Source: Candidatus Doudnabacteria bacterium RIFCSPHIGHO2_02_FULL_46_11 | GTDB lineage: Bacteria; Patescibacteriota; Doudnabacteria; UBA920; 2-02-FULL-46-11 | Length of the DNA: 35,117 nt | Direction: 5' to 3' | NCBI GenBank assembly: GCA_001779955.1 | Contig: MFES01000003.1 | Span: forward strand, 11,348 to 46,464 | Shown: positions 3,708 through 30,638 of the stretch, piece by piece | Layout of the letters: each line of letters begins with the position of its first letter | Position numbering within the stretch: the stretch's first letter is position 1 | Translations under genes and position numbers: made by a program | Notes under the pieces: model-generated | What the model was told of the DNA's origin: nothing | Seen by the model: only the letters and a program-made list of their open reading frames with translations | Database searches by the model: none

Positions 3708-6284
3708 ATGGCCCAAAAAGAGCTTGCCAAGGCCTATAACCCGACCGAAGCCGAAGAACGAATATATAAACTCTGGGAAGAGTCTGGTTTTTTTAATCCC
3801 GACAACCTGCCTGACGCCAAAAAACGCGAACCTTTTACCATTATCATGCCGCCGCCCAACGCCAACGCTCCCCTCCATGTTGGCCATGCTTTGTTTTTAA
3901 CGATTGAAGATATTTTGATTCGTTTTAACCGCATGCAAGGCCGTCGCGCACTGTGGCTGCCCGGTTCAGACCATGCCGGTTTCGAGACACAGGTAGTATT
4001 CGAAAAAAAACTGGAAAAAGAAGGCCGCTCGCGATTCAAAATGGAGCGCAAGGAATTGTACAAAGAAATTTGGGATTTCGTTCAAAACAACAAACACATC
4101 AGCGAGCAAGGTATTAAGCGCATGGGATCTTCCTGCGACTGGTCGCGCAATACCTTCACTCTGGATCCAGCAATAATAGAAATCGTCTACGAAACTTTCG
4201 AGCAAATGTACAAAGACGGTTTAGTATATCGCGGCCAAAGAATTTCCAATTGGTGTATCAAGCATCAAACGAGCCTTTCTGATTTGGAAACAAAATACGA
4301 AGAACGAAGCGAGCCTCTTTACTATTTAAAGTACGGTCCTTTTACAATTGCTACGGCCAGACCCGAAACAAAGTTTGGCGATAAATATGTAGTTATGCAT
4401 CCGGAAGATAAACGATATACCCAATATAAGCACGGCGACAAAATTGAAGTTGAATGGATAAACGGAAAAATTACAGCCACAATTATAAAAGACGAAGCCA
4501 TTGACCAGGAATTCGGTACAGGGGTTATGACTATTACCCCTTGGCATGATCCGATTGACTTTGAAATTGCGCAAAGGCACGGTTTAGATAAGGAACAAAT
4601 TATTGATAAATTAGGCAGGCTTCTGCCAGTTGCTGGCGAATTTCAAGATATGAAAATAAAAGAAGCCCGCCCCTTGATTGTCGAGAAACTAAAAACTAAA
4701 AGCCTGCTCGAAAAAGTTGATGAAGATTACAAACACAACGTCCAGCTTTGCTATAAATGCAATAGCGTAATTGAACCGCAGATTATACCGCAATGGTTCG
4801 TGGCTATGACTAAGAGTTTGAAAGATGGCCGACCATCACTAAGGGATATGGCATTGCAAGCCACAGAAAACAATGAAGTGAAAATTATCCCGGAACGATT
4901 TGAAAAAGTATATACACACTGGATGCAAAATCTGCGTGATTGGGCAATAAGCCGCCAAATTGCCTGGGGCATTCCTTTTCCGGTTTGGTACTGTAATGTC
5001 GAAAGGGCAAATATGCCGCGCATACATTTTGCAGATTTTACGGTTGAGCAAGTCTTAAATGGAAAAACAAAAACTTACCGCCTAAAAAATAAAGGCCACA
5101 ACATTAGTGATAAAGTTAGACTGGTAAATAAAACTACGCAAGAAGTTTTTGGCTATGCCACTATTACCAATGTAGAAATTAAAAAAATAAAGGATATTGA
5201 TCTTAGTGATAAAGCTCATTACTCCACTTACAAAAATCTGGACGAACTGCTGGTAGCTTTCAAAAGACACTACCCGCCGGACCAAAAAATTGATGGCGAA
5301 ACAGAAAGCTACATTTACGACTACGCTTTCGAGGCGTTATCGCCGGAAAATACAAAAGACGGTTGCGGCCAAATAATAATATCCGGCGAAGCGCCTAAAA
5401 AATGTCCGGTTTGTAAAAACAAAAATTTAACGCAAGATCCTGATACTTTTGATACCTGGTTTTCATCCGGACAATGGCCGTATGCCACGCTAATGGCTCA
5501 AGGTAAAAAGGATTTCGAAACTTACTACCCTACACAAGTAATGGAAACGGGTTGGGATATTCTCTTTTTCTGGGTGGCGCGGATGATAATGTTCGGGATT
5601 TACAAAACCGGACAAAAACCTTTTAGCACAGTATTTTTGCATGGTATTGTCCGCGATAAAGATCGTCAAAAAATGAGTAAGAGTAAGGGCAATGTGGTTG
5701 ACCCTTTGGGCGTAATTGATACTTACGGTACCGATGCCTTACGCTTTGCTCTTATATTCTCTACTTCAGCCGGCACCGATATTCCATTGTCAGAAGATAA
5801 GGTAAAAGGCATGAAACACTTTGCCAATAAAGTTTGGAACATAGCCAGATTTGTGTTAACCAATCTGGAAAAATCAAAAAACAAAAAACAAAAAACAAAA
5901 TTACAACCTAAAACTGAAAACGATAAAAAAATATTAGAACAGTTGGAACAAACGATAAAGGAAGTGACGAACAATTTGGAAAACTTCCGCTTGCACGAGG
6001 CCGCCCAAAGCATTTACCAGTTTACCTGGCGCGATTTTGCCGATGTTTATATTGAAGCCAGCAAAAAACAACTGTCCAATTCCATGGAATTGGACAGTGG
6101 AAAATCCTCCGCCGCCAAGACCTCGGCGGAGCTTCGGGAAAACACGCAAAGAATTCTTCTTTACTGCCTGCAAAATATTCTGAAATTGCTCCATCCTTTT
6201 ATGCCGTTTGTCACCGAAGAAATCTGGCAACAAATGGAAAACGAACAGTTGTTAATGGTAGAAACCTGGCCCCGACTTCGCTAA
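3708..6284 (+). CDS. valS: valine--tRNA ligase (ValRS)
   Basis: HIGH box (PLHVGHAL), KMSKS box, CP1 editing-domain motifs (TARPETKFGD, GTGVMTITPWHDPIDFE), DTWFSSGQWP, and LHPFMPFVTEEIWQ in the anticodon-binding domain. Confidence 0.97.
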   Translation: MAQKELAKAYNPTEAEERIYKLWEESGFFNPDNLPDAKKREPFTIIMPPPNANAPLHVGHALFLTIEDILIRFNRMQGRRALWLPGSDHAGFETQVVFEKKLEKEGRSRFKMERKELYKEIWDFVQNNKHISEQGIKRMGSSCDWSRNTFTLDPAIIEIVYETFEQMYKDGLVYRGQRISNWCIKHQTSLSDLETKYEERSEPLYYLKYGPFTIATARPETKFGDKYVVMHPEDKRYTQYKHGDKIEVEWINGKITATIIKDEAIDQEFGTGVMTITPWHDPIDFEIAQRHGLDKEQIIDKLGRLLPVAGEFQDMKIKEARPLIVEKLKTKSLLEKVDEDYKHNVQLCYKCNSVIEPQIIPQWFVAMTKSLKDGRPSLRDMALQATENNEVKIIPERFEKVYTHWMQNLRDWAISRQIAWGIPFPVWYCNVERANMPRIHFADFTVEQVLNGKTKTYRLKNKGHNISDKVRLVNKTTQEVFGYATITNVEIKKIKDIDLSDKAHYSTYKNLDELLVAFKRHYPPDQKIDGETESYIYDYAFEALSPENTKDGCGQIIISGEAPKKCPVCKNKNLTQDPDTFDTWFSSGQWPYATLMAQGKKDFETYYPTQVMETGWDILFFWVARMIMFGIYKTGQKPFSTVFLHGIVRDKDRQKMSKSKGNVVDPLGVIDTYGTDALRFALIFSTSAGTDIPLSEDKVKGMKHFANKVWNIARFVLTNLEKSKNKKQKTKLQPKTENDKKILEQLEQTIKEVTNNLENFRLHEAAQSIYQFTWRDFADVYIEASKKQLSNSMELDSGKSSAAKTSAELRENTQRILLYCLQNILKLLHPFMPFVTEEIWQQMENEQLLMVETWPRLR
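5019..5342 (+). other. ASCH/PUA-like (YqfB-like) domain inserted within ValRS (aa ~438-545)
   Basis: IHFADFTVEQVLNGKTKTYRLKN..SDKVRLVN..VFGYATITNVEIKKIKDIDLSDKAH..NLDELLVAFKRHYPP..YIYDYAFE matches my recalled E. coli YqfB pattern ([27 protein letters not shown]..). It lies between Cys429 and Cys553. Confidence 0.6.
6073..6131. repeat. in-frame palindromic insertion in valS: a 24-bp perfect palindrome plus an 8-bp-stem GC hairpin
   Basis: TGTCCAATTCCATGGAATTGGACA (6073-6096) is a perfect palindrome. CTCCGCCG (6107-6114) pairs with CGGCGGAG (6124-6131). Encodes about 13 residues absent from E. coli ValRS at this position. Confidence 0.6.
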
Positions 6285-8940: not shown

Positions 8941-8968
8941 ACCACGAATCACCGCGGGTGCGCATGAC

Positions 8969-9008
8969 TTATCACACTTTCCTCCGATCGGAGGCAATTG
9001 TGATAATA
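8969..9008. repeat. 38-40 bp nested palindromic element TTATCACACTTTCCTCCGATCGGAGGCAATTGTGATAA
   Basis: Outer arms TTATCACA/TGTGATAA and inner palindrome CCTCCGATCGGAGG. Second copy at 20835-20872, third inside tsaD. Confidence 0.75.
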
Positions 9009-9040
9009 AAAAAAACGTCCCCTACTGGGGAACGATTTTT
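9008..9040 (-). terminator. intrinsic terminator of clpP
   Basis: Minus strand reads AAAAAAATCGTTCCCC-AGTA-GGGGACG-TTTTTTTT immediately after the clpP stop. Confidence 0.65.
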
Positions 9041-9670: not shown

Positions 9671-9825
9671 AAACCTCAAACATCAATCTTCAACCCTCAA
9701 ACAATCTTCAAACTTCAATTATCAATTCCGGAAATTGCCAGCCCGCTTGGACTTCGTCCAGGCGAAGTCTGGCGGGGGGTTTGGGGATTGAAGCTTTATT
9801 GGAGTTTGAGTGTTGAAGTTTGAAC
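9671..9825. repeat. CTTCAA/TTGAAG long-hairpin element, copy R1 (basic form)
   Basis: Left arm AAACCTCAAACATCAATCTTCAACCCTCAA, right arm TTGGAGTTTGAGTGTTGAAGTTTGAAC, GC hairpin core GACTTCG-TCCAGG-CGAAGTC. About 90% identical to 25641-25925 once two insertions are removed. Confidence 0.75.
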
Positions 9826-9827
9826 AT

Positions 9828-11171
9828 TTACTCGGTACCCCGAGTTCCCATTCCTGTATCGCTTTCGGTGTCTGCTACATTTTCCGCATCCGGTGTCATG
9901 CCTTCTGAAGCAACCACATCGGCTTCAGCCATCATCGGCTGATCGTCCGAGGCCTCATCTTGCTTGGCCTCTTCCTTGCTCTCAACCGTATCAGCGGCAT
10001 CTTTTTCTATTGTCTCGCCTTCTGTCGTTTCTTCCTCCGGCGGTGAATCGGGCGCCTCTTCTATTTCATCCGGGCTGGCCGTGGCCGCGGTTTCAGTTTC
10101 TTCCAATGCGCCGCCATCGCCCAGTTTCTCCCCGATTATATCTATTTTCCAGCCGGTAAGACGCGCGGCCAAACGCACATTCTGCCCGGCCCGACCGATA
10201 GCCAAACTCAATTGGTCTTCCAAAACTCCCACCCGGGTCTCTTTTTCATCCTCGTTAAGCTGGACGTTTATAATTTTTGCCGGAGACAAAGAATTGCTGA
10301 TAAATTTAACAGGATCGTCGGACCATTCGATAATATCCACCTTTTCTCCGCCGAGTTCGGCCATAATTGTCTGTACGCGCGTGCCGCGCTGGCCCACGCA
10401 GGCGCCGATCGGGTCAACGCCTTCCTGGTTGGAAAATACCGCGACTTTGCTGCGGGATCCGGCTTCGCGGGCAATGGCTTTAATTTCTACGGTACCGGCA
10501 TAAATTTCCGGAACTTCAAGTTCAAAAAGTCGGCGCACGATGTCGGCATGCGAACGGGAAAGTGTAATTTTCGGGCCCTTGGCCGTTGGTTCAACGTGCA
10601 AAACTAAAACCTTCAAGCGTTGGCTAATGCGGTAATTTTCACCCTTAATCTGTTCAGACGGAAACAAAACGCCCGTAGCCTTGCCCATATCCACGAGAAC
10701 GGCATTGCCTTCAAGCCGTTGAACGACGCCGTTAACAATGGTGCGTTCGCGCGACTTAAATTCAGTAAACATGGCATTGCGTTCAGCCTCGCGAAGCCTT
10801 TGCATAATAACCTGCTTGGCGGTTTGGGCGGCAATGCGGCCAAAGTGCGTGCCGTCGGCTGGAGTAATTTCGGTTCGGATCTCGCCATCCATTTCAATAT
10901 CAGGATTTATTTTCTTGCCTTCTTCAAGGGTAATGTATTTAGAAGGCTCTTTTTCCAAAAGTTCAGCATCCTCGGTTATTGTCTTTACGTCAAAAACGCG
11001 GCTGTCTAAAGTCACCGGGTCAAATTCAACTACCGGATTTTGCTCGCGGGTGGCGTAGTCTTTACGAAAAGCAGCGGCTAAAGCCACCTCAATCATTTTA
11101 ATAATTTCTTCCTTGGGTATGCCCTTTTCGTCCGCAATTTGGGTAAGGGCTAAATCAAACTCACTTGGCAT
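9828..11171 (-). CDS. nusA: transcription termination/antitermination factor NusA with an acidic C-terminal tail
   Basis: The N-terminus (ALTQIADEKGIPKEEII..ALAAAFRKDY) plus S1 and two KH regions (GACVGQRGTRVQ, AIGRAGQNVRLAARLTGWKIDI). Confidence 0.95.
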   Translation of the reverse strand: MPSEFDLALTQIADEKGIPKEEIIKMIEVALAAAFRKDYATREQNPVVEFDPVTLDSRVFDVKTITEDAELLEKEPSKYITLEEGKKINPDIEMDGEIRTEITPADGTHFGRIAAQTAKQVIMQRLREAERNAMFTEFKSRERTIVNGVVQRLEGNAVLVDMGKATGVLFPSEQIKGENYRISQRLKVLVLHVEPTAKGPKITLSRSHADIVRRLFELEVPEIYAGTVEIKAIAREAGSRSKVAVFSNQEGVDPIGACVGQRGTRVQTIMAELGGEKVDIIEWSDDPVKFISNSLSPAKIINVQLNEDEKETRVGVLEDQLSLAIGRAGQNVRLAARLTGWKIDIIGEKLGDGGALEETETAATASPDEIEEAPDSPPEEETTEGETIEKDAADTVESKEEAKQDEASDDQPMMAEADVVASEGMTPDAENVADTESDTGMGTRGTE

Positions 11172-11384: not shown

Positions 11385-11774
11385 TCAGTAATTATCCTGA
11401 ATCGCATCTTCTATAATATTAACACTCTGGAATTTTCCGTCAAGGGGTGATATAACCAGCGCCACATCTATGCGCATCAGGTAGTCTTGATACTTGGCAT
11501 TGTTGGCTATAAAACCTTTTATGGCCTTTAACAGGCGCTGCTGTTTTTTAAAGCCGACAGCCTCCACTGCCGGCATAAATTCTTCATTTTCCCGGGCCTT
11601 GACCTCCACAAAAACCAGCTGCTTGGCTTTGGCGGCGATTAAATCTATTTCGCCCAACTGCTTATAGCCCATGACCAAAACTTTTTGTCCGACAATCTTA
11701 AAACCTTTTTTCTTGTATTCCTCCGCAACCAGCCGTTCTCCCCAATCGCCGAACTCTTTTTTGCTCGTAGGCAT
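11385..11774 (-). CDS. yraN: YraN-family (UPF0102) endonuclease-like protein
   Basis: GEIDLIA....LVFVEVKAR motif and a size of about 129 aa. Confidence 0.85.
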   Translation of the reverse strand: MPTSKKEFGDWGERLVAEEYKKKGFKIVGQKVLVMGYKQLGEIDLIAAKAKQLVFVEVKARENEEFMPAVEAVGFKKQQRLLKAIKGFIANNAKYQDYLMRIDVALVISPLDGKFQSVNIIEDAIQDNY

Positions 11775-11777
11775 TGT

Positions 11778-12161
11778 CTATTTTAAATATTTTTGCTTGG
11801 TTTGCTGATTGTGAAAACCCGCTATTTCCTTTGAATAATCACGCACCCAGTAAATAACTAGCTTGATTAGCCAAATCGTCGCCACCAAAGCCAAAACCAC
11901 GGACCAAAACCGCCATTCCAAATAGGCCGCGCCTTCGTAGCGGAAAACCGTCCACAACAGGCCAATGAGACCATAGGTTAGGCATAGGTTTCTAAACCTA
12001 CGCACGAGCTTCCTGCTTACCGGATTCATGGTCTTCAGGAAAAGCAAGGCGACTAAAATAATTCCCAAAATTACGGCGCCGGCAGCGTCGTAAAAAAAGA
12101 TATTGTCCCAAATCTCTAAACGCAGCGGATACGGGCCAAAAAGAAATGTTTGCATATCCAT
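11778..12161 (-). CDS. small integral membrane protein (3 predicted TM helices), hypothetical
   Basis: 127-aa ORF with hydrophobic stretches. Its stop lies 3 nt upstream of the yraN start. No family recognised. Confidence 0.6.
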   Translation of the reverse strand: MDMQTFLFGPYPLRLEIWDNIFFYDAAGAVILGIILVALLFLKTMNPVSRKLVRRFRNLCLTYGLIGLLWTVFRYEGAAYLEWRFWSVVLALVATIWLIKLVIYWVRDYSKEIAGFHNQQTKQKYLK

Positions 12162-12369
12162 CCCGTATAGTTACCCCAATAAATCTTTAGGCTTTGTGTT
12201 AAAGCCTAGAAAAATATTGCTTTGTAAGTTAATGCTTAAAATAATCATATTATCTATTCTGCGGCCAAGATTTAGAAGAGTGAATTCTAGAATAAAATAC
12301 GTAATTAAATGCTTGCCCATCTTATTACATTCCACAATACCAGCAGAAGATTGGGGAAGTTATACGGGA
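12161..12369. mobile_element. MITE-like element, M-type (209 bp)
   Basis: TIRs TCCCGTATAGTTACCCCAAT / ATTGGGGAAGTTATACGGGA (17/20 complementary), flanked by TCCA/TCCA. About 70-75% identical by eye, in inverted orientation, to 30638-30990 minus its nested insert. Confidence 0.65.
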
Positions 12370-12385
12370 TCCATGGTGAGTTAAT

Positions 12386-12490
12386 TTTACAATTTTCAAT
12401 TTCTAATTTCTAAACAATGAGCCAATTTCAGAATTTCAAAATTGAGACCTTGGAAAATTGTTTGAAAATTGAAAATTAGAAATTAATAAA
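12386..12490. repeat. AT-rich low-complexity inverted repeat (imperfect long hairpin)
   Basis: Left arm TTTTACAATTTTCAATTTCTAATTTCTAAACAA, right arm TTGTTTGAAAATTGAAAATTAGAAATTAATAAA, located downstream of the methyltransferase stop. Confidence 0.5.
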
Positions 12491-13036
12491 TTACTTAATA
12501 TAGGTAACGGCATAATGATAAGAATCGGCTGGTGTTTTTCGGCCTGGCTTGAAGCCGGAGCCTGTTAAAAGATGGGCGACGTCTTCTTCCGAAAGTCTAG
12601 TTTCAGCCGGAGGCCCGAAGGCCGAGCCCTGCGGTTCCCATTCGATGACTAAAACATAACCGCCGGTTTTCAAAGCCTTAAAGGCCGACTCGATAACGGC
12701 TTTTTTGTTTGGCGCCTGGTGTAAGATATTTGCCAAAATAACAGCATCACAAGAAACGGCCGGCACAGGGCAATAATCGGCTTTTTCCAGGTCACAGCGC
12801 AAAGTGGTGATATTCCGGATTTGTTTGAGCCTGGCATCAGACATCAAGTGGCGCAAGGGGTCTTCCTGAATATCAACGGCATAAACCGAGCCCTTGTCGC
12901 CTACTATCTCGGCCGCGGCCACGGCATAAAAGCCGTTACCAGAACCAAAATCGCCAATAATCATGCCCGGCCTAAAACCGGCGCCAACCAGAACTTTATG
13001 AGGATCAATAAATCTATTACCCGGACTATAAAGCAT
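12491..13036 (-). CDS. class I SAM-dependent methyltransferase
   Basis: Motif I IGDFGSGNGFYA, followed by VYAVDI and GGYVLVIEW. Confidence 0.85.
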   Translation of the reverse strand: MLYSPGNRFIDPHKVLVGAGFRPGMIIGDFGSGNGFYAVAAAEIVGDKGSVYAVDIQEDPLRHLMSDARLKQIRNITTLRCDLEKADYCPVPAVSCDAVILANILHQAPNKKAVIESAFKALKTGGYVLVIEWEPQGSAFGPPAETRLSEEDVAHLLTGSGFKPGRKTPADSYHYAVTYIK

Positions 13037-13152
13037 ATAAATTTAAAAATCAAAAATCAAAGTTCAAAATTTAAACTTAAAAATGATAACTTCCAGAAAC
13101 AAATTTTGAATTTTTACTTGTAGTTTTGACTTTTGCATTTTGAATTTTGACA
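13037..13152. repeat. AT-rich AAAATCAAAAATC / GATTTT-type inverted repeat filling the ymdB-methyltransferase spacer
   Basis: AAAAATCAAAAATCAAAGTTCAAAATTTAAAC faces AAATTTTGAATTTTTAC..GTTTTGACTTTTGCATTTTGAATTTTGA. Confidence 0.5.
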
Positions 13153-17373: not shown

Positions 17374-18177
17374 TTAATCTTCCCTTATCTTTACCGAGAA
17401 CTCCGGGTCATCGGCATATTGCAGGGCTTTATCAGTCACCAGATATTTAGCTTTAGCTTCAAGGAAAGGCAAGTCCGTATCGATTAAACCGAGGGAATAG
17501 GCTAGCTCGTCCGCTCGGGCAGGAAAAACATACTTCAAGCTGAAAGGCACCCGTTTGGGGGCAATTTTGTTGACGTGCTCAACAATATTATTACTGCAAT
17601 TGTTGGTTAAGGTGTTGTAAAACTCCGGCTTGTCTCTTAGCTGATTTGTTCTGCCGATCATATCGAGAAAAACCGATCTAATTTTTTCGGGTGTAGTTTT
17701 TACCGGATAAATATACACTCGATCTTTTCGATAGTTAGTCCTAAGCTTTACTACGTCCCGCTCATCAGCTATGACATACATCAATTCATATTGTTTGAAC
17801 AGGCCTTTAAACGGCGAATATTTTTCTCCCTTTTCTTTTCTAATTTCGATTGAGATACTAACGAATTGATTGCCGGAAAATTCGAAGCTTAAAAAGGTGT
17901 GGCCGGCATATTGACTGTCCCCGAACGGCTCGACAATGAAATAGACTTTTTCAAGTTTTGACAGGTCAAAAGTTTTATCGTAATAGGCTGGAATATAATC
18001 GTCGGCCGAAGTGTAAGTAAAATTACGGATATTATGAATACTCGCTAAATCCCCGTTTATCTCCGCATACGGCAAAACCGCCTGATCAGTATTCCAGTCC
18101 CGATCGTTAGAAGGCTTCTTAAACAAAAATCCAACCATAACAAGCAACGCCGCTAATACTAAAATCTTAAGATACAT
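17374..18177 (-). CDS. DUF4105 (Lnb N-terminal domain-like) protein with N-terminal anchor
   Basis: SNDRDWNTDQAVLPYAEINGDLASIHNIRNFTY, GHTFLSFEF, SIEIRKEKGEKYSPFKG, YELMYVIADERD, FYNTLTNNCSNN. Confidence 0.8.
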   Translation of the reverse strand: MYLKILVLAALLVMVGFLFKKPSNDRDWNTDQAVLPYAEINGDLASIHNIRNFTYTSADDYIPAYYDKTFDLSKLEKVYFIVEPFGDSQYAGHTFLSFEFSGNQFVSISIEIRKEKGEKYSPFKGLFKQYELMYVIADERDVVKLRTNYRKDRVYIYPVKTTPEKIRSVFLDMIGRTNQLRDKPEFYNTLTNNCSNNIVEHVNKIAPKRVPFSLKYVFPARADELAYSLGLIDTDLPFLEAKAKYLVTDKALQYADDPEFSVKIRED

Positions 18178-20800: not shown

Positions 20801-20834
20801 ATAACGCGTGCTGTTCTAAATCCTTTGCTGCATC

Positions 20835-20872
20835 TTATCACATTTTCCTCCGATCGGAGGTCGTTGTGATAA
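20835..20872. repeat. second intergenic copy of the TTATCACA..CCTCCGATCGGAGG..TGTGATAA palindromic element
   Basis: TTATCACATTTTCCTCCGATCGGAGGTCGTTGTGATAA. As at 8969-9008, it directly abuts an A-run and a terminator hairpin. Confidence 0.75.
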
Positions 20873-20873
20873 T

Positions 20874-20901
20874 AAAAAAGCCCGCTCATGCGGGCATTAA
20901 A
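20874..20901 (-). terminator. intrinsic terminator of rplS
   Basis: GCCCGC-TCAT-GCGGGC (20880-20895), followed on the minus strand by TTTTTT. Confidence 0.65.
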
Positions 20902-23467: not shown

Positions 23468-23565
23468 AAAACTCCAAACTTCAACCCCCAAGCCTCAAGC
23501 TCTAACCTTCAATATCTGAAGTTTGAATTTTGAAGTTTTGTTGAAAATTGAAGTTTGAGGGTTTA
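23468..23565. repeat. CTTCAA/TTGAAG-type imperfect long hairpin in the trmD-dedA spacer
   Basis: AAACTCCAAACTTCAACCCCCAAGCCTCAAGC.. faces ..TTGAAAATTGAAGTTTGAGGGTTT. Confidence 0.5.
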
Positions 23566-23568
23566 GGA

Positions 23569-24315
23569 TTATTGCTTAACAAGCAAATCTGGTCTATTCT
23601 TTTTGGTTTTGCTAAGCGACTGCTCATCGCGCCATTTTTGAATGGCAGCATGGTTTCCGGAAAGAAGCACTTTAGGCACGCGGTATTTTTTGCCTTTCCA
23701 TTCAAAAACTTCCGGTCGGGTATAGTGAGGGTGTTCAAGCAGACGAAGTTCTTTGGCCTGCCCCTGCACCAAAGTCGCGAAGCGAGTTTTTGGTGCGAGG
23801 GAAAACGACTCGTGCAAAATTGATTCTTCCTTGCCCACCACCCCAGGCACTTGCCTTGAGACCGCATCAAGCAAAACTAAAGCCGGTAATTCTCCGCCGG
23901 TCAAAACATAGTCTCCAATCGAAATTTCCTCGTCAACTAATTTTTCAACCCTGGCGTCAAAACCTTCGTAGCGCCCGCAAAGCAAAACCAAGCGATCATA
24001 TTTCTTTGCCAAGCCTTCAACCTTCCTTTGGGTCAATAGCTTGCCCTGCGGATTAAAATTTATGATTCTAGTTTTTTTGTTTTTGCGCGGAACTAATTTT
24101 TTTAAAACGCGGGCGGCAATATCAACTTTTAAAACCATGCCCGCTCCGCCGCCATAAGGACGATCATCCACGGTTTTATGGGGGTCTGTCGCCCAATCGC
24201 GCAAATTCCAAACATTAACATCCAAAAGTTCCTTGCCTTGCGCTCGCGCGAGCAGGCTGGAGTTAAGATATGAATCAAATGCTTCCGGTAAAATAGTGAT
24301 AATATCAAACTTCAT
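23569..24315 (-). CDS. trmD: tRNA (guanine37-N1)-methyltransferase
   Basis: FDIITILPE, DDRPYGGGAGMV, LLCGRYEGFD.R, SIGDYVLTGGELPA, LEHPHYTRP, VLLSGNH..I..WR. Confidence 0.95.
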   Translation of the reverse strand: MKFDIITILPEAFDSYLNSSLLARAQGKELLDVNVWNLRDWATDPHKTVDDRPYGGGAGMVLKVDIAARVLKKLVPRKNKKTRIINFNPQGKLLTQRKVEGLAKKYDRLVLLCGRYEGFDARVEKLVDEEISIGDYVLTGGELPALVLLDAVSRQVPGVVGKEESILHESFSLAPKTRFATLVQGQAKELRLLEHPHYTRPEVFEWKGKKYRVPKVLLSGNHAAIQKWRDEQSLSKTKKNRPDLLVKQ

Positions 24316-24381
24316 AAAAAATAATCCAAAATTTATTTCCGAAATTAATCACTTTTGGATTTCAATTTTGATTTTTGATTT

Positions 24382-25632
24382 TTAATTTTCTCGTGTTATA
24401 TCGGCGCCGATGGCCTTGAGCCTTTCCTCGATTTTCTCATAGCCGCGGTCAATATGATCAATGCCGGAAATAACCGTTTGGCCTTCAGCTACCAAGGCCG
24501 CAACAAGCAGGGCCATACCCGCGCGGATATCATAACTTGTTACTTCCGTACCATGCAAAGGCGTGGGCCCGATTATCAAAGCTCGGTGCGGATCCATGAT
24601 TACGGCATTGGCGCCCATCTTATAAAGCTCGGCCAAATAACTTTGCCTGCCTTCATAAAGCCAATCATGAATCATGCTAGCCCCTTCGGACTGCGCGGCC
24701 AGCACGGCCAAAGGCGGCAGAAAGTCGCTGTTGAGCTTTGGATAAAGCCCGGATTGCAAACGCGAGGCTTTATAGGGCTCAAGCGGAGGCAAAATGTGCA
24801 GGCTGTCTTTTTCAATTTTATAATTTATATTCATTTTATTCATCTGCAATAAAAGCGCGTTTAAAGTCTCCGGATTAATGTCTCGGATAATTAAATCGCT
24901 ATGAGTGGCAGCGGCTACGGCCACAAAACTGGCAACCTCAATATCCTCGGGAATAACTGCGTGCTCTACGCTTTTGAGGGAAGTTGAACCAGTTACTTTT
25001 AGCGTGGTGCTCCCGATACCCTCAATTTGCACCCCGGCCTTAACCAAAAATTTGCAAAGGGACTCAACGTGAGGTTCCATCGCGACCAAATGCATAGTGG
25101 TAACGGCATCTATACCGGCGGCATAAATCAAAAGATTCTCGGTGGCGGTAACGCTCGGCTCGTCCATGATAAAATCGCCGCCGAGGTGTTTGCCAGCCTT
25201 AAAATTAAGCGTGCCCTTTTCCGAAACCTCCACGCCAAGAGCCTTAAAGGAATTGATATGCGCATCAAGGGGCCGGGCGCCGATTTTATCTCCTCCCGGA
25301 TGCGGCAAAGTGGCTTCGCCGAACCTTGCCAGAAGGGGCCCGGCAAATAATATGGAGGACCTAAGCGCGCGGGCTTGTTCGGTCAGCGGCTTATTTATAA
25401 TACCTTGGCTTTTAAGCAAAAGCTCGTGCTTACCGATCCATTCAAAACCGCCGCCCAGATACTGAAAAATATCAAGCGTGGTATCAACATCCTTGATGCG
25501 CGGAACATTTATAAGCCGGGCCTCGGGCACAAGAACTGAAGCGGCAATTAACGGCAAAACCGCGTTCTTGGAGCCGCTAATTTTAACTTCGCCCGATAAT
25601 GGCTGGCCCCCGTTTATAATGAATTTAGACAT
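24382..25632 (-). CDS. murA: UDP-N-acetylglucosamine 1-carboxyvinyltransferase
   Basis: GEVKISGSKNAVLPL, PGGDKIGARPLD (Asp in place of the Cys115-type residue), and a full-length EPSP-synthase-fold pattern. Confidence 0.95.
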   Translation of the reverse strand: MSKFIINGGQPLSGEVKISGSKNAVLPLIAASVLVPEARLINVPRIKDVDTTLDIFQYLGGGFEWIGKHELLLKSQGIINKPLTEQARALRSSILFAGPLLARFGEATLPHPGGDKIGARPLDAHINSFKALGVEVSEKGTLNFKAGKHLGGDFIMDEPSVTATENLLIYAAGIDAVTTMHLVAMEPHVESLCKFLVKAGVQIEGIGSTTLKVTGSTSLKSVEHAVIPEDIEVASFVAVAAATHSDLIIRDINPETLNALLLQMNKMNINYKIEKDSLHILPPLEPYKASRLQSGLYPKLNSDFLPPLAVLAAQSEGASMIHDWLYEGRQSYLAELYKMGANAVIMDPHRALIIGPTPLHGTEVTSYDIRAGMALLVAALVAEGQTVISGIDHIDRGYEKIEERLKAIGADITREN

Positions 25633-25640
25633 AGACTCTT

Positions 25641-25925
25641 AAACTTCAATCCTCAATCTTCAACCCTCAAGCAATCTTCCTGCCTGCGCCGAGGCTTCCT
25701 CCTTCGCCCCCTCCTCCGCTAAAGCTGGGCGGGCAGGCAAGGCTTCGGAGGACAGGTCGGCAGGCAGGCAAACTTCAATTATCAATTCCGGAATTGCCAG
25801 CCCGCTTGGGCTCCCGCCTGACTTCGAAAAGACGAAGTCTTGTCGGGCAGGTCGTCCAGGCGAAGTCTGGCGGGGGGTTTGAGGCTTGAAGTTTTAATGG
25901 AGTTTGAGTGTTGAAGTTTGGAGTT
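25641..25925. repeat. CTTCAA/TTGAAG long-hairpin element, copy R2, carrying two nested GC-rich palindromic insertions
   Basis: Colinear with R1 (9671-9825) except for a 90-bp insert at 25680-25769 (ends CCTGCCTGC / GCAGGCAGG) and an insert of about 40 bp near 25809-25852 (GACTTCG-AAAAGA-CGAAGTC core). Confidence 0.75.
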
Positions 25926-26044: not shown

Positions 26045-26187
26045 CCCGGACACCACAACAGCCATAAATTTTTTCGTAATTTGGTGTGACTTAACTAGAT
26101 TTTGCTATATAACCAGCCGACTTATTACCTGTGATTGCTAAACAAAAATTTATCGGACTGGAACACTATGGGTGTTTGGTGTACGGG
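26045..26187. mobile_element. MITE-like element, T-type copy T0 (143 bp), abutting the KH-gene stop codon
   Basis: Arms CCCGGACACCACAACA (left) and TGTTTGGTGTACGGG (right). Its right end is 1 nt from the stop codon at 26189-26191. Flanks TTTA/CTTA match imperfectly. Confidence 0.5.
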
Positions 26188-26188
26188 C

Positions 26189-26539
26189 TTAGAGATTTAT
26201 ATCCAAAGGATCGCCGGATTCTTCGTTGCTTTCTTCTCTGCGCGGAGCTTCCTGCTGATCTCGCTGTGGCCGCGTACCGTGCTCTCTTTCCGGCTCGTAA
26301 ATCTTCAGGTTGACGCGAGCTCGGTTCTTGGCGCCGACAATACGAAGCAGGGTGCGAAGAGCTTTGGCGGTCTGGCCGTTGCGGCCGATAACCTGACCAA
26401 AGTCCTGTGGATTGAGGAAAAGGGTGATAAGCACGCCCATCTCATCAACCTTGCGCTCGGTGCGAACATCCTCCGGATGGTCAACTAAGGCCTTGACCGT
26501 ATACTCGATGAACTGCTGATCGTTTTCCGTTTCTGCCAT
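26189..26539 (-). CDS. KH-domain RNA-binding protein (YlqC/UPF0109-like) with a charged C-terminal tail
   Basis: LVDHPEDV......V.I.L....D.GQVIGRNGQTAKALRTLL pattern, in its conserved position after rpsP. Confidence 0.85.
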   Translation of the reverse strand: MAETENDQQFIEYTVKALVDHPEDVRTERKVDEMGVLITLFLNPQDFGQVIGRNGQTAKALRTLLRIVGAKNRARVNLKIYEPEREHGTRPQRDQQEAPRREESNEESGDPLDINL

Positions 26540-26540
26540 A

Positions 26541-26681
26541 CCCTGTATATCAACCTCGATAATCTTAATGTCTTATAGTTCGACTTGAGATACGAGGTTA
26601 TGATTCTATTCCTACTTATGCCCGTGTAACGTTCGCTAGCCTTTAAGATTAAAGGAGAACTATCGAGGTTGCATAACGGGG
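26541..26681. mobile_element. MITE-like element, K-type (141 bp), abutting the KH-gene start codon
   Basis: TIRs CCCTGTATATCAACCTCGAT / ATCGAGGTTGCATAACGGGG, subterminal stem AATCTTAA/TTAAGATT, flanking CATA/CATA (26537-26540 and 26682-26685). Same ends and size as 30826-30967. Confidence 0.6.
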
Positions 26682-26764
26682 CATATCTTCTAAATGTTGC
26701 TTTTTAAGGACCTTCGACTAGATGGTCTCATTTCTAAAATATCACTAAACAGATTTTTCTTCAA

Positions 26765-27046
26765 CCCGCACACCATAACCGCAATATTGCTCTTCTTAAA
26801 CCATCATAGGTAATAAAATCTTGGTTAGCATAACGGATATTACAGTAATCATCGTTACACAATATCGCAATAGGTACAGGTTTATTGCGGTTTGGTGTCT
26901 GGGTCAACCCGGTACACCACAACTGCAATATCGCTTTACTATAAATCGTCGTAGGTAATGCTAGAACTTATTTCGAGAATTTACGCTAACATGAGCTATT
27001 ATCAATGGCGCAATAGGTACAGATTTATTGCTGTTTGGTGTCCGGG
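26765..27046. repeat. two tandem T-type elements (about 139 bp each, 143-bp period), each flanked by TCAA
   Basis: TCAA at 26761-26764, unit A 26765-26903, TCAA, unit B 26908-27046, TCAA at 27047-27050. Arms ACCCGCACACCATAACCGCAATA / TATTGCGGTTTGGTGTCTGGGT. The right arm of unit B encodes the last 7 codons and the stop of rpsP. Confidence 0.7.
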
Positions 27047-27441
27047 TCAACCGCTGGGGTCTCCTCCGGGGCGGGTGTTTGCTCCGCCGGAGCGGCTTCT
27101 GCAACCGGTCCGCCAGCTGGCGGATTAGTAGCTGCGGCGGGCGTAGCGGCTTCGGCTGGCTTCTCTGATTTCTTTGGCCTCCAAGCTTTAACTTTTACGC
27201 CCTCCTTCACAACTTTATTGGTTACAAACAAATTGTGAACGGTCGCACTGACTTCTACGTTCTGGCCAAGCCAATACTCAAGGCGGGCCTGATCGGAAAT
27301 CTTAAATTCTTTATTGCGCGGGTTATAGTTGCCCAGAATTTCCAGGAACTTCTTTGACGCGGCTTTTGTCTTCTGCGCCAGCACGATGCGGAATTGCGGC
27401 TGATGCTTCTTGCCTATTCTTTGCAGACGGATAATTAACAT
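27025..27441 (-). CDS. rpsP: 30S ribosomal protein S16 with an Ala/Pro-rich C-terminal extension
   Basis: MLIIRLQRIGKKHQPQFRIVLA...LGNYNP core. Confidence 0.95.
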   Translation of the reverse strand: MLIIRLQRIGKKHQPQFRIVLAQKTKAASKKFLEILGNYNPRNKEFKISDQARLEYWLGQNVEVSATVHNLFVTNKVVKEGVKVKAWRPKKSEKPAEAATPAAATNPPAGGPVAEAAPAEQTPAPEETPAVDPDTKQQ

Positions 27442-27608
27442 ACTTAATTTGATAGACTTAATACTTCTAAAATGCTTGATTATATTACAGAAATATCAAA
27501 GGGTTTGTCAATCAGCTCCTTAAATCAACTTTCAGAAGGTAAAAGTAAAAATTCATTTCAAAACTTTTAAATTTTTTAATTGTAATTTTGATTTTTGATT
27601 TTTGATTT

Positions 27609-28220
27609 TTAATTTACTCGGATGTGCCGCCAAATATACCAGACCAAACTTAAAACTATAAGAATGGCGATAGCCACGTCAAAACCGCGCAACTGTTCGT
27701 GCAGGCTTTCCCAATGAGCGCCAAGCTTCATTCCTAAAAAAGCTAAAATATAAGACCAAATAAAAGATCCGACAAAAGCCGCGAGTGTAAAAGACCAAAA
27801 CGGGGTTTTAGCTATGCCGGCCGGCACCGAAATATAGGTGCGGACAATCGGCAGCATACGGCCGATAAATGTGCTCCAGGCGCCGTATTTTTTGAAAAAT
27901 CCGTCAGCCTTGTCCAGATCACTCTTTGATATGAAAACATAATGGCCATACCGTTCGACCAAAGGCCGCCCGCCCTTGAGAGCAATAAAATAAATAACCC
28001 ACGACCCCAAAACTGAACCGATTGCGCCGGAAAGAGCAGCGCCAAAAAGAGTAAACCTGCCCTCGTGAACCAAAAAACCGGCAAAGGGCATGATTATTTC
28101 ACTTGGCAAAGGTATGGCGGCAGATTCGATGGCCATCAATACGGCAATGCCAATGTAACCAGCGGCGGAGATGGTATTGGTTACAAAATTTATTATTGGC
28201 GATAAAATAGTTTCCAACAT
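27609..28220 (-). CDS. dedA: DedA family membrane protein
   Basis: Canonical motifs ESAAIPLPSE and FIGRMLPIVRTYISVPAG. Confidence 0.9.
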   Translation of the reverse strand: MLETILSPIINFVTNTISAAGYIGIAVLMAIESAAIPLPSEIIMPFAGFLVHEGRFTLFGAALSGAIGSVLGSWVIYFIALKGGRPLVERYGHYVFISKSDLDKADGFFKKYGAWSTFIGRMLPIVRTYISVPAGIAKTPFWSFTLAAFVGSFIWSYILAFLGMKLGAHWESLHEQLRGFDVAIAILIVLSLVWYIWRHIRVN

Positions 28221-28343
28221 AAATTTTAATCCTCAAAACTCAAACTTCAATCCTCAATAAAACTTCAAACACCAAGCTTCAGTTCTGGACTTGAGATTTG
28301 ATCATTGAGGGTTCCTGGAGGCTCGAGAGTTGAAGTTTGAAGT
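28221..28343. repeat. CTTCAA/TTGAAG-type imperfect long hairpin filling the smc-dedA spacer
   Basis: AATCCTCAAAACTCAAACTTCAATCCTCAA.. faces ..TTGAGGGTTCC..GAGAGTTGAAGTTTGAAGTTT. Confidence 0.5.
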
Positions 28344-30638
28344 TTACTCTTGGGCGTAGGTCAAGGAATCATCAAATTTAATTGATAAAATTTGTGAAAC
28401 GCCGGAATCGTTCATGGTCACGCCGTAAAGCGTATGCGCCCGGCGCATGGTTTCGCGGTTGTGGGTGATGGTGATAAATTGGGTGCGATCAGAGAGCGTG
28501 CCAAGAATTTTGGCAAACCGGATGCTGTTGCTTTCATCCAAAGCCGCGTCAACTTCATCCAAAACAACAAACGGCGAAGGGTAAGCGTCTAAAAGGGCAA
28601 TCAGCAAAGCGATGGTGGTCAGCGTGCGCTCCCCGCCGGAAAGAGCGGAAATGGAAGAAAGTTTTTTACCGGGTGGTGTGGCACTAATATCAATGCCGAT
28701 TATATCCTGATTCGGCTCTATCTTCTTTTCCTGTTCTTCCTCATCCTCCTCGTCCGTGCCGTCCTCATTTTTGATTTTTGATATTTGATTTTTGATTTTC
28801 TTTAAATCGGCTTTGCCGCCGTTAAAAAGTACCCGAAAATAATCGCTGAATTTGGCTGAAATGATAGAGAAAGCTTCATTAAACTTTTCTTTGATTACAG
28901 CGTTCAATTCCTCAAGCACGGTTTCCAAATCAGTTGCGGCCGCTTCTAAATCGCGAACTTGGCCGGTGAGATAACTGTAGCGCTCCTCGGTTTCCTCGTA
29001 TTCGCGGGCAGTTTGTTCGTCCAAACCTCCAATCTGTTCAAGCTGGCGTTTGAGATAAGAAATCTGCTCATCAGCAGCGGCATCCTGAACTTGAGCGGTG
29101 CCTTTGATAATTTCCTTAAAATTAGCTCCTAAATCTTCAGTAGCGCTTCTTTCTTCCTCTTCTTGCTTTGTTTCGATGCGAGCCAGTTCAATTTTGAAAT
29201 TATTTTGTTCACTGCGTAGCCGGTTTAAATCTTGTTCTTCTTTTCTTATTTTTTTGTCGGCCTCCTGGCGCCCGCTGGTATAAGCAGATATGTTGGTTAG
29301 CTCGTTTTGCAGATCAGCCTGCAATTTATTTAGCGACTTCTCATGAACCTGAATAATCTTATCAAGTTTGTCGGCCGCTTCTTGAAAATCACTGCCGCCG
29401 GCGCCGATTTCGGCTTCGATTCGGGCAATAGCCCGGGCCAGATCCTGTTTCTGGCTGATCATTTTTTTTATCAGTTGTTTCTGATTATTTAAAAAACGAT
29501 CGCTTATCTGATTGAAGCGCGGCACCAAATCGGGCTTGGAGGAATTCAAGATATCAACAATCTCTTTAATGTCCTGCTCGGTCTCGAGGATATTTTTTTC
29601 AAAATCCTCCACTTGGCTGGAAAGTTCGGCCTGCTGACGGCGCAGATCATCGCGTCTACCATGCAGGGCGGCCAAATCTTTTTGCGGGTTCGATAAGTTT
29701 GCCCCCATTTTCACGCGTAATTCTGCCAATTCCAGCTGCAACCTTTCTTTTTGGCGCTGCTCGTTTACAATACTCTGCTGAAGCGCGGTAATAGTTTGTG
29801 AACGCTTGGTTGAATTCTGGTCGCTCTCCTCAACTGAACGGAAAAACTTTTGCACCGCGCCCTCGAGCTGTTTTATTTTTGTCTCGAGCTCATTAATCTG
29901 CCCGGTTAAATTGCTTTTATCCTTTTGCAGATTGGCAAAAATAAACAATAACCTGCCGGATAGTAAATCTTTCCACTGCTTCTCAATCTCCGATCTTTGC
30001 TCCAATTTTTTTGCCTGGCGGCGCAAGGTGCGAAGCCTAGGTTCAATTTCGGCAGTTAAAGCGCTGACTTGGGTTAAATTCTCACGCGTGGCGGTAAGCC
30101 GGCGCACGGTTTTTTGATGTTTTTCGTAAAAAGGAGCGAGCCCGGCCGCTTCTTCAATTACGCTCTTGATTTCCGCCGGCCCCTGTAATAAAAACTGATC
30201 AATTATACCCTGGCCAATAACGGTGTAACGCGATTGAGCAAAGCCGGCTTTTTCCAGAAGCTCGCTTATGTCCATAAGACGCATTTGCTCGTTGTTGATT
30301 AGGTATTCCGAGCTGCCGTCGCGGTGTAGCCGGCGGGTAATGACAACTTCAGCCGAATCCACCGGCAATTTTTTATCTTGATTGTCAAAAATCACCGAAG
30401 CATGGGCCACGGATGAACGCATCCTTTGGGCTGAACCGGCAAAAATTACATCTTCGGCTCTTTTGCCGCGAAGGAGCAGTTTGCTTTGCTCGCCCAAAAC
30501 CCAACGCACGGCATCGGAGATATTCGACTTCCCCGAGCCGTTTGGCCCGACAATAGCCGTAATCCCCGGCTGAAATGCCAGGTCAGTTTTATGAGCAAAT
30601 GATTTGAAGCCTTGTATTTCTAAACGTTTGAGGTACAT
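28344..30638 (-). CDS. smc: SMC-family chromosome partition ATPase, unusually short (764 aa), no obvious hinge
   Basis: N-terminal head (LEIQGFKSF, Walker A GPNGSGKSN) and C-terminal head (PPGKK..LSGGERTLT.IALL, Walker B FVVLDEVDAALDE, ITHNRETM). Only about 360 aa lie between the heads. Confidence 0.85.
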   Translation of the reverse strand: MYLKRLEIQGFKSFAHKTDLAFQPGITAIVGPNGSGKSNISDAVRWVLGEQSKLLLRGKRAEDVIFAGSAQRMRSSVAHASVIFDNQDKKLPVDSAEVVITRRLHRDGSSEYLINNEQMRLMDISELLEKAGFAQSRYTVIGQGIIDQFLLQGPAEIKSVIEEAAGLAPFYEKHQKTVRRLTATRENLTQVSALTAEIEPRLRTLRRQAKKLEQRSEIEKQWKDLLSGRLLFIFANLQKDKSNLTGQINELETKIKQLEGAVQKFFRSVEESDQNSTKRSQTITALQQSIVNEQRQKERLQLELAELRVKMGANLSNPQKDLAALHGRRDDLRRQQAELSSQVEDFEKNILETEQDIKEIVDILNSSKPDLVPRFNQISDRFLNNQKQLIKKMISQKQDLARAIARIEAEIGAGGSDFQEAADKLDKIIQVHEKSLNKLQADLQNELTNISAYTSGRQEADKKIRKEEQDLNRLRSEQNNFKIELARIETKQEEEERSATEDLGANFKEIIKGTAQVQDAAADEQISYLKRQLEQIGGLDEQTAREYEETEERYSYLTGQVRDLEAAATDLETVLEELNAVIKEKFNEAFSIISAKFSDYFRVLFNGGKADLKKIKNQISKIKNEDGTDEEDEEEQEKKIEPNQDIIGIDISATPPGKKLSSISALSGGERTLTTIALLIALLDAYPSPFVVLDEVDAALDESNSIRFAKILGTLSDRTQFITITHNRETMRRAHTLYGVTMNDSGVSQILSIKFDDSLTYAQE
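28768..28806. repeat. AT-rich TTTTGATTTTTGAT repeat in frame inside smc
   Basis: TTTTTGATTTTTGATATTTGATTTTTGATTTTC encodes KKIKNQISKIKNE. The same string family occurs in spacers at 24361-24381 and 27578-27608. Confidence 0.55.

Follow-up and report, generated by a model that had tools for sequence, protein, structure and literature searches.

Short inverted-repeat elements on start codons of Candidatus Doudnabacteria, with GIY-YIG nuclease-coding relatives as candidate partners

MITEs (miniature inverted-repeat transposable elements) of bacteria, such as Correia/NEMIS of Neisseria, Nezha of cyanobacteria and MITEAba12, are short, non-coding and multi-copy, carry terminal inverted repeats (TIRs) and have target-site duplications (TSDs) on both sides. 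They form long hairpins in RNA, lie at transcribed sites next to genes and have ends matching those of a protein-coding partner. IS1380-like DDE elements combine a 4-5-bp duplication with CC ends. Another type of small selfish DNA is represented by free-standing GIY-YIG homing endonuclease genes, e.g. the seg genes of T-even phages. This work deals with a stretch of 35,117 nucleotides of Candidatus Doudnabacteria bacterium RIFCSPHIGHO2_02_FULL_46_11, an ultra-small organism of groundwater (contig MFES01000003.1, positions 11,348 to 46,464; the window in what follows), and with a 209-bp element on the start codon of its gene for a 127 amino acid membrane protein. The element shares all the features listed above for bacterial MITEs and belongs to a family whose members repeatedly occupy start codons. 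The best overall explanation, which we regard as reasonably probable, is a family that inserts at start codons, is mobilised by a nuclease and depends on the initiation signals of its host genes.

The 209-bp element (12161..12369, minus strand) is a non-autonomous element of the type here called M, with 17-nt inverted ends TCCCGTATA...TATACGGGA. End A, on the gene side, reads TCCCGTATAGTTACCCC (12161-12177) and End B, the distal one, is the reverse complement of TCCCGTATAACTTCCCC (12353-12369). On the minus strand the layout is ...gtaaaattaactcacc ATGGA|T CCCGTATAACTTCCCC, the 209-bp element, GGGGTAACTATACGGG A|TGGA TATGCAAACA..., and element base 12161 is the A of the ATG of the membrane protein gene (11778..12161, minus strand, MDMQTFLFGPYPL...). 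The gene-proximal target duplication TCCA (12157..12160, minus; TGGA on the gene strand) completes, together with element base 12161, the working ATG. On the gene strand the native A at 12374 comes before the distal duplication TGGA (12370..12373, minus). ATCCAT is thus found on both sides of the element (12156-12161 and 12369-12374), and the distal copy opens a decoy start with a mini-ORF of four codons, ATG GAT CCC GTA TAA (12360..12374, minus), whose stop lies within End B. The first-pass annotation had described the element, the repeated ATCCAT and the short upstream reading frame in these terms, and every one of its sequence statements on this site agrees with what we find.

That annotation also took the ATG beyond the gene-side repeat to be the real start, and homologues bear this out. 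The only ones found for the 127-aa protein are 59% and 52% identical to it, are 127 aa long as well and begin with MSIQNF... and MDIRAF...; both genes lack the element and follow the same upstream methyltransferase gene after a spacer of 78-85 bp. Since these orthologues share the N-terminus and have no element, the downstream ATG is the genuine start and the relatives represent the empty site. The same junctions are present in at least eight independent assemblies from Rifle-type groundwater samples, which rules out an assembly artefact. No filled/empty polymorphism was seen among the assemblies of the population, the sole variant being two versus three tandem copies of another element type (P, see below), and all copies in the window are fixed in the population. 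The end motif TCCCGTATAGTTACCCC/TCCCGTATAACTTCCCC occurs at three sites in the window, where 0.15 would be expected by chance. The 209-bp element is 71.5% identical over 200 nt to the M-type copy at smc and can be aligned with six further copies. A protein encoded by the M element was considered and discarded: one assembly carries a 49-aa gene call, and indels and stops break this frame in the other copies.

Upstream of the decoy ATG lies a promoter-like site, TAGAAA-17-TAAAAT (12384..12412, minus strand), identified by consensus match only. It ends 9 nt before the decoy ATG, so that the mRNA would have its 5' end at the decoy AUG or no more than a few nt from it. A scan of the gene-proximal end for an outward promoter gave no convincing -10/-35 pair; it returned the native site upstream of the decoy ATG and a weak terminator-like hairpin. 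This hairpin, GGCTTT-AACAC-AAAGCC (12188-12208, minus strand), about 25 nt before the gene-proximal end, is kept in other M copies with compensatory changes; it is followed by TAAAGATTTAT and was flagged as terminator-like, with a poor U-tract.

Three other genes of the window show the same geometry, and their mini-ORFs of 8, 11 and 14 codons, at smc, a KH-domain gene and ftsH respectively, have the lengths first given for them. On the smc start lies a second M-type element (30638..30990, minus strand; TSD TACA at 30634-30637 and 30991-30994), which duplicates ATGTA. This copy is inverted relative to the other M copies and has a 142-bp element of type N nested within it (30826..30967, TSD TTTA). 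At the KH start there is a 141-bp N-type element with C...G terminal bases (26541..26681, minus strand; TSD CATA at 26537-26540 and 26682-26685); here TATG is duplicated, and relatives read ...TATGGCAGAA and are free of the element. The ftsH start carries a 103-bp element of type Q (34900..35002, minus strand) with a 5-bp TSD TTTCA (34895-34899 and 35003-35007), by which ATGAAA is repeated. It had been stated that four of four start-proximal elements sit on the initiation codon. The four sites stand; a fifth start-proximal element, of 81 bp with Q-like ends (31714..31794), lies 14 nt upstream of the rnc ATG, has no matching duplication and brings the count to four of five. In the relative L143 the end of a Q-like element (1507-1633) lies 3 nt ahead of the rnc ATG (GGGA|TTCATG), and its TTCA flank has as final base the A of the start codon, in a register that differs from the usual one.

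The family as a whole has ends of the form 5'-TCCYGTA...TACRGGA-3', the outermost pair being C...G in some subfamilies (N and P). Inverted ends of 16-20 nt are present in every copy, direct repeats of 4-5 bp flank most of them, a few old copies (L133 site A and E79) being without, and the elements, with sizes of 101-353 bp, were found in more than 25 copies at different loci. At starts the duplications are TGGA, TGTA, TGAA and TGAAA, and elsewhere TCAA/TTGA, TTTA and CAAG. The most economical reading of these junctions is that the elements end in T...A, or in C...G for types N and P, and duplicate 4-5 bp. At start codons the elements cut at A|TGNA: the native A and TGNA stay upstream and are followed by the T of the element, giving the frame ATG NAT CCY GTA TAA with its stop in the inverted end, and the host ATG is rebuilt from the terminal A of the element and the duplicated TG, with the protein unchanged.

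A 6-bp duplication, as the two copies of ATCCAT would suggest, was rejected on three grounds. The sixth base of the distal copy is always T, whereas the gene's own sixth base may be T, C, A or G. One base further out, the ends of type M line up with those of type N (TCCTGTATA vs CCCTGTATA). The third ground is the related locus L144, whose SMC is 61% identical to that of the window and which carries an N-like element of 144 bp on the orthologous smc start. Its junctions are cgTGTA|T...GGA|TGTATTT, i.e. the upstream copy is GTGTA and the gene copy ATGTA; in a further relative, L142, the smc start is uninterrupted and reads GTG TAT TTA AAA. As GTG is native and ATG is present at the gene, the A of the working ATG comes from the element. 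The smc start is occupied by an M-type element in the window and by an N-like one in L144, so this start codon was struck independently by different types. Empty orthologous sites exist in relatives for the 127-aa gene, KH and smc and, together with the inverted ends and the flanking duplications, they identify the elements as a mobile inverted-repeat family. At L150, an N-type element (2444-2582) with terminal G abuts TGCATAAT, its left flank being mismatched; the yjbQ-like gene there apparently starts at GTG, made of the last G of the element and TG.

The first-pass annotation held the association with starts to be hard to explain by chance and to stand or fall with the distribution of other copies. 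We compared positions with start codons, taking as possible targets in the window only the native non-coding DNA (3694 nt, 10.5% of the window) and as a match any insertion within 6 nt of a start; the probability of at least four matches among nine insertions is 6e-4. For the wider census, copies were found through their inverted ends or through homologous proteins, blind to position. A scan of metagenome contigs requiring both ends yielded nine loci corresponding to five M-type sites, and further copies came from the same contigs and from 10 kb past the end of the window. In all, about 19 insertions were found on 15 host start codons. Exact A|TGNA insertions include those at genes for a femAB-like protein, a murG-like protein, an M50 protease, a GT1 glycosyltransferase, a sugar transferase and a 65-aa membrane ORF, and at rpmJ (L36), whose product keeps the canonical N-terminus MKVRASVKK. 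The motif ATGNA was counted over 102.9 kb of non-redundant sequence: 30 cases fall on starts, 84 on other non-coding positions and 513 within coding sequence. All thirteen ATGNA-type insertions are at starts and none of the 84 non-coding sites is used (p ~3e-8 vs the non-coding alternative), so the copies in this sequence are not scattered at random relative to starts. At nine start sites the TNNA overlapping the ATG was always the one chosen among 3-12 in the 45 nt examined, for which random choice gives ~8e-8.

No conservation of the target past ATGNA was seen among the insertion sites compared. Different elements arranged in tandem share one duplication in several cases (M-M', M-N', 138-Q and P-P-P), which means that the same 4 bp were struck repeatedly and not the 200-bp resident element. 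No fewer than five sites lie at stop/start junctions internal to operons (smc, rpmJ, murG-like, GT1 and the L152 methyltransferase): smc begins 8 nt after the rnc stop and rpmJ 4 nt after the stop of an upstream ORF (putative infA). Two sites are ATGA stop/start overlaps, where the stop codon is kept in the upstream copy and the start in the downstream copy. Targeting of the transcription starts of leaderless genes was considered and cannot be general, nor can any promoter-proximal explanation, since these sites are operon-internal. Two outer searches were without result: a genome-collection scan with a 19-nt degenerate end motif gave 111 chance matches in unrelated organisms, none with a partner end, and viral contigs scanned for both element types had no match.

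The interpretation proposed at the outset for the bias, either a target preference for A|TGNA-type sites or selection for insertions regenerating an ATG, is supported, and the cut lies at A|TGNA as first proposed. The most serious alternative to a start-inserting family is built on selection. On this view a conventional DDE transposase encoded elsewhere moves ordinary MITEs in trans, and the pattern arises from a weak TNNA preference and purifying selection: the genome being compact and devoid of Shine-Dalgarno sites, an insertion would survive only if it spared promoter, ATG and ORF, and copies wedged against essential signals would resist deletion. Inverted ends with 4-5-bp duplications are classic for DDE elements, the duplications away from starts (TCAA/TTGA, TTTA, CAAG) suit a loose T..A target, and the small share of native non-coding DNA in the window favours it too. 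So does the single N-type case at KH, with its different register (TATG) and the ATG still kept, which resembles selection and not fixed targeting. Selection alone, however, leaves the 3-12 unused upstream TNNA sites per insertion unexplained, and does not account for second insertions that strike the 4-bp duplication instead of the resident element. On balance we rate this alternative as unlikely. The start-codon bias probably reflects a short, oriented target preference combined with survival of those insertions alone that preserve expression of both element and host gene.

The orientation of the elements relative to the host gene, together with the GIY-YIG members, the operon-internal sites and the rnc copy off the ATG, had been overlooked in the first annotation. 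The two ends can be told apart consistently, End B being ...TATAACTTCC and End A ...TATATTTACC or ...GTTACC, and End A points toward the host gene in 12 of 13 M-lineage elements. Non-coding copies taken alone show this bias as well (10/11), a point against transposition in trans of ordinary MITEs. The ends also covary, the same variant (CCCCAAT, CCCCGAT, CCTCGAT, CCGCAAT or CCCCCAG) being found at both ends in 12 of 12 copies.

The protein-coding relatives are elements of 311-314 bp which have the family ends and hold one ORF, for a GIY-YIG nuclease of ~86 aa. The first is the tandem partner at L141 (2428-2738, 311 bp), with M-type ends TCCTGTATAACTTCCCCCAG...CTGGGGGTAAATATACAGGA and an ORF interrupted by a premature stop (72 aa), which matches Pfam PF01541 with E = 3e-17. 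Its closest homologues are two paralogues, 82-85% identical, in Candidatus Doudnabacteria RIFCSPHIGHO2_02_FULL_46_11 (NCBI name). The unit of paralogue 1 occupies a GH1 glycosidase start itself (ccaATGTA|T...GGA|TGCAGGAATTG, giving MQELKFPNKFLWGAA); that of paralogue 2 is followed by TGAA, a 145-bp MITE and the start of a DoxX gene. Similarity among the three 311-bp units starts exactly at the T and stops exactly at the A. Three GIY-YIG paralogues with identical 17-nt ends are present at three non-homologous host starts in one Doudnabacteria genome. A Roizmanbacteria homologue, 60% identical, forms a 314-bp unit TCCCGTAGTAGAATTTTGAC...GTCAAAATTTCACTACAGGA in the ATGA overlap between a gene for a DegT-family aminotransferase and a methyltransferase gene. 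In a third lineage the GIY gene lies between N-type ends directly after TAATGAA, with the decoy ATG in frame with the nuclease. These units with family ends that contain the GIY-YIG gene only, in sense at a host start, are those at L141 (2428-2738), L146 (1401-1711), L150 (2980-3290), L152 (2476-2789) and L154 (2506 to contig end). GIY-YIG elements occur in two candidate phyla.

The GIY ORF is always in sense with the host gene, with its start a few nt past the distal end and its stop 22-34 nt short of the rebuilt ATG; the units examined showed no evident promoter or ribosome-binding site belonging to the element. Two GIY copies differ by 28 synonymous and 14 non-synonymous changes (dN/dS ~0.06, with synonymous sites near saturation), and have identical ends and last 35 nt. 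The gene is under strong purifying selection. Y17, G19, R27, E30, H31 and E63 are invariant in 12 GIY-YIG homologues, and the nearest solved structures are those of UPF0213 proteins (PDB 1ywl and 1zg2), a weak match at E ~0.008. In the retrieved loci GIY-YIG is the only gene ever found between family ends, and no transposase gene was seen in those of them that have gene calls. If a DDE transposase moved the family the GIY-YIG ORF would be mere cargo; its place as sole gene between ends in three lineages, the divergence of the ends along with the protein and the selection on it speak against this, as does the lack of a transposase gene just mentioned. The same three points, sole gene, coevolution with the ends in three lineages and selection, incline us, if only slightly, to the view that the GIY-YIG nuclease mobilises the family. 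The 311-314-bp elements are the probable autonomous partners, and the M, N and Q elements of the window would be deletion-type passengers of the nuclease.

How such elements might be expressed is suggested by the translation context of the hosts. No Shine-Dalgarno-like motifs were found upstream of any of the window genes (e.g. 17374-18177, 1034-2302 and 11385-11774), and -10-like hexamers are enriched 4-13 nt upstream of ATGs. In several genes a TATAMT or TAAAAT hexamer is found 5-9 nt before the ATG, an indication of leaderless or near-leaderless mRNAs in this lineage.

The first-pass annotation proposed that folding of the terminal repeats brings the decoy and the real ATG together at the base of a hairpin, and the predicted RNA structures do close the ends. 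The single-sequence fold of the 209-bp element has a closed terminal stem and a minimum free energy of -57.8 kcal/mol (z = -3.3). A consensus fold of seven copies comprises the terminal stem, an internal stem (TTCTGC/GCAGAA) and the conserved hairpin, with compensatory changes in 7 of 29 pairs. In the predicted fold the decoy AUG lies free at the stem's 5' base, and two bases of the real AUG, its A and U, are paired; Q and N copies are alike in this respect.

On this model, the element would be expressed from the initiation context of the host gene, having itself no recognisable promoter or ribosome-binding site. The genes of the host lack Shine-Dalgarno motifs, and many of them are apparently leaderless or translationally coupled. 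Ribosomes would therefore enter at the decoy AUG or come in from the cistron upstream, read the mini-ORF (or the nuclease), melt the terminal stem in which the real AUG is otherwise paired, terminate, and begin anew at the rebuilt AUG next to it. A short target preference (T-K-N-A, with oriented joining) would then account for the start-codon bias, together with the expression of both element and host gene that no other register preserves. Termination-reinitiation or 70S scanning in bacteria (PMC9031893) offers a functional analogy only.

Gating of translation by the mini-ORF and the hairpin is plausible under the same model, and a domesticated regulatory module would go further. There the mini-ORF and hairpin would serve to gate the downstream gene, by occlusion relieved through translation of the mini-ORF, by reinitiation or by shunting. 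Such a role would suit the constant geometry, in which decoy and real AUG occupy the 5' and the 3' base of the stem respectively, the fixation in all population assemblies, the gene-wise orientation, the covarying ends and the internal helices kept by compensatory changes. Covarying ends would also result from coevolution of nuclease and ends, though, and the hosts are unrelated housekeeping genes (smc, ftsH, rpmJ, KH and cell-wall enzymes) with no common regulatory need; close relatives do without the elements, and tandem doubles and nested copies resemble parasitism. Domestication is in our view improbable as the explanation of the family.

Removal at the RNA level, as by an intron, would make the DNA insertion phenotypically silent, with excision between the direct repeats restoring the native mRNA. 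Because of these repeats any in-register excision restores the original sequence; U always precedes CCYG and G ends ...CRGG, reminiscent of group I splice-site rules, the window contains an RNase III gene, and rRNA genes are rich in introns in bacteria of this radiation. Subfamilies N and P break the U/G rule, however, elements of 101-209 nt with three simple helices have no room for the catalytic core of a group I or II intron, and an Rfam scan of the whole window, intron models included, returned tRNA-Val only, with no RNA family in or near the elements. A group I/II self-splicing intron was rejected for want of a catalytic-core match, and RNA-level removal in general is very hard to credit.

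Several points weigh against a nuclease-mobilised, start-inserting family as we describe it. The start-codon preference is strong and not absolute: about a dozen copies lie off start codons, at gene 3' ends, stop codons, intergenic positions or nested, with duplications TCAA/TTGA, TTTA and CAAG. Flanks are mismatched at L133 site A, on the left side of the L150 element and at E79, and the related sequence covered by the census amounts to ~100-150 kb. The interior of the M type did not arise by deletion from the GIY element, with which only ~17 nt per end are shared. We know of no GIY-YIG-only transposon, and an 86-aa domain without a DNA-binding domain is not known to us to transpose. A GIY-YIG nuclease would still have to account for the 4-5-bp duplications and the rejoining of DNA, and it could be cargo that an unseen transposase mobilises in trans. 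In the predicted stem part of the real AUG is paired, and the insertions may simply be slightly harmful ones that drift has fixed. Where transcription starts, that the decoy AUG is used and that ribosomes reinitiate are steps which we infer.

The insertions have consequences for annotation, gene callers choosing varying starts at these sites: the membrane gene is called as 125 or 127 aa, ftsH is given a TTG start, and a 102-aa GIY call begins at the decoy ATG. The essential genes ftsH, smc and rpmJ tolerate 100-350 nt of structured RNA between the native initiation context and the AUG, and the sites would constitute a natural experiment on the choice of start codons in bacteria without Shine-Dalgarno sites.

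Other members of the family in the window lie off start codons. Two tandem P-type elements (26765-26903 and 26908-27046, together 26765..27046), each flanked by TCAA, lie between the genes for S16 and KH. The array (26761-27052) substitutes the last few S16 residues, and the S16 frame ends inside the element. It has two copies in the window and in most assemblies and three in scaffold_1545 (L127 17992-18141). A P-like element (26045..26187, flanking repeat TAA[A/G]) adjoins the KH stop codon.

Repeats of other kinds are present as well. Inverted arms rich in CTTCAA/TTGAAG (AAACTTCAATCCTCAATCTTCAACCCTCAAGC ... TTTGAGGCTTGAAGTTTTAATGGAGTTTGAG) occur at 9671-9829, 23469-23571, 25641-25922 and 28227-28346; these arm pairs end ~8 nt upstream of gene starts and also flank the M element in L138, and two copies enclose a common GC-rich core (9709-9822 and 25769-25920, 94-96% identical). 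Low-complexity AAATCAAAAATC / GATTTTTGATTT arrays (1883-1965, 5852-5940, 13028-13150, 24304-24393, 27524-27620 and 28767-28811) are arranged as inverted pairs in many stretches between genes, immediately before start codons. A 46-nt palindrome, CTTATCACAnTTTCCTCCGATCGGAGGnnnTTGTGATAATAAAAAA, is found three times between genes (1515-1560, 8968-9013 and 20834-20879, 84-92% identical) and resembles a REP-like or terminator-like hairpin family. In one assembly a 62-bp stretch of the RNase III gene (31264-31325) is replaced by 10 bp (L130 3994-4003), which cuts the gene call down to 185 aa.

It remains to place the family among known systems. Judged from its sequences it has every structural hallmark of MITEs and can be described as a MITE with start-codon targeting and ATG regeneration. 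In the full-text literature, in which few subscription journals are covered, we found no description of start-codon-targeting MITEs, of MITEs of this bacterial radiation, or of inverted-repeat elements with GIY-YIG or UPF0213 genes. Known MITEs are scattered in intergenic regions or use simple targets (TA), none being reported to land on a start codon, to rebuild it with its own terminal base and to be oriented by gene, and their partner is a DDE transposase, whereas that of the window elements appears to be a GIY-YIG nuclease. Correia/NEMIS can be separated by its TA duplication and 26-bp ends, the present family having duplications such as TGNA and TCAA and unrelated ends. IS200/IS605-type elements have no inverted ends and no duplication, carry subterminal hairpins and insert 3' of a fixed tetra- or pentanucleotide, in contrast to the true TIRs and duplications found here.

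With GIY-YIG homing genes the GIY elements have in common a small selfish nuclease gene between host genes, in sense, transcribed by the host and leaving the neighbouring ORFs intact. Homing enzymes, however, enter the same allelic site via recombinational repair, have a separate DNA-binding domain and lack inverted ends and duplications, while the GIY elements consist of the ~86-aa catalytic domain alone with 20-nt inverted ends, 4-5-bp duplications and several non-homologous sites per genome. The small GIY-YIG proteins of UPF0213/COG2827, of similar size and with the same domain, are treated as ordinary chromosomal genes of unknown function. The layout, and only the layout, recalls the shunt of the cauliflower mosaic virus 35S leader, where a short ORF ends at the base of a stem and the main AUG lies past its other side. 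Neisseria REP2 and the Borrelia upstream repeats lie directly upstream of genes and supply translation start signals including the ATG (PMC3184786). REP2, however, brings a complete promoter together with ribosome-binding site and ATG, and it lacks TIRs and duplications; of the ATG the present elements supply the A alone, and a decoy start remains upstream.

A tentative proposal, in which our confidence falls somewhat short of even, is a new class of prokaryotic transposon. It would encode only a GIY-YIG protein of ~86 aa, insert in fixed orientation at the A|TG of host starts, lack expression signals of its own and act as an extra cistron handing ribosomes to the rebuilt start, with non-coding derivatives, the 209-bp element among them, that spread in like manner and sit on about one third of the eligible ATGNA starts of the window. 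If this is true, no earlier transposable family has been shown to aim at initiation codons and to repair them on insertion, and a DNA transposon driven by nothing but a GIY-YIG nuclease may be a first as well. So small a nuclease, inserting in a set orientation at a short defined site, would also deserve study as a potential tool, and it would add a fifth nuclease type to the DDE, HUH, serine recombinase and tyrosine recombinase enzymes.

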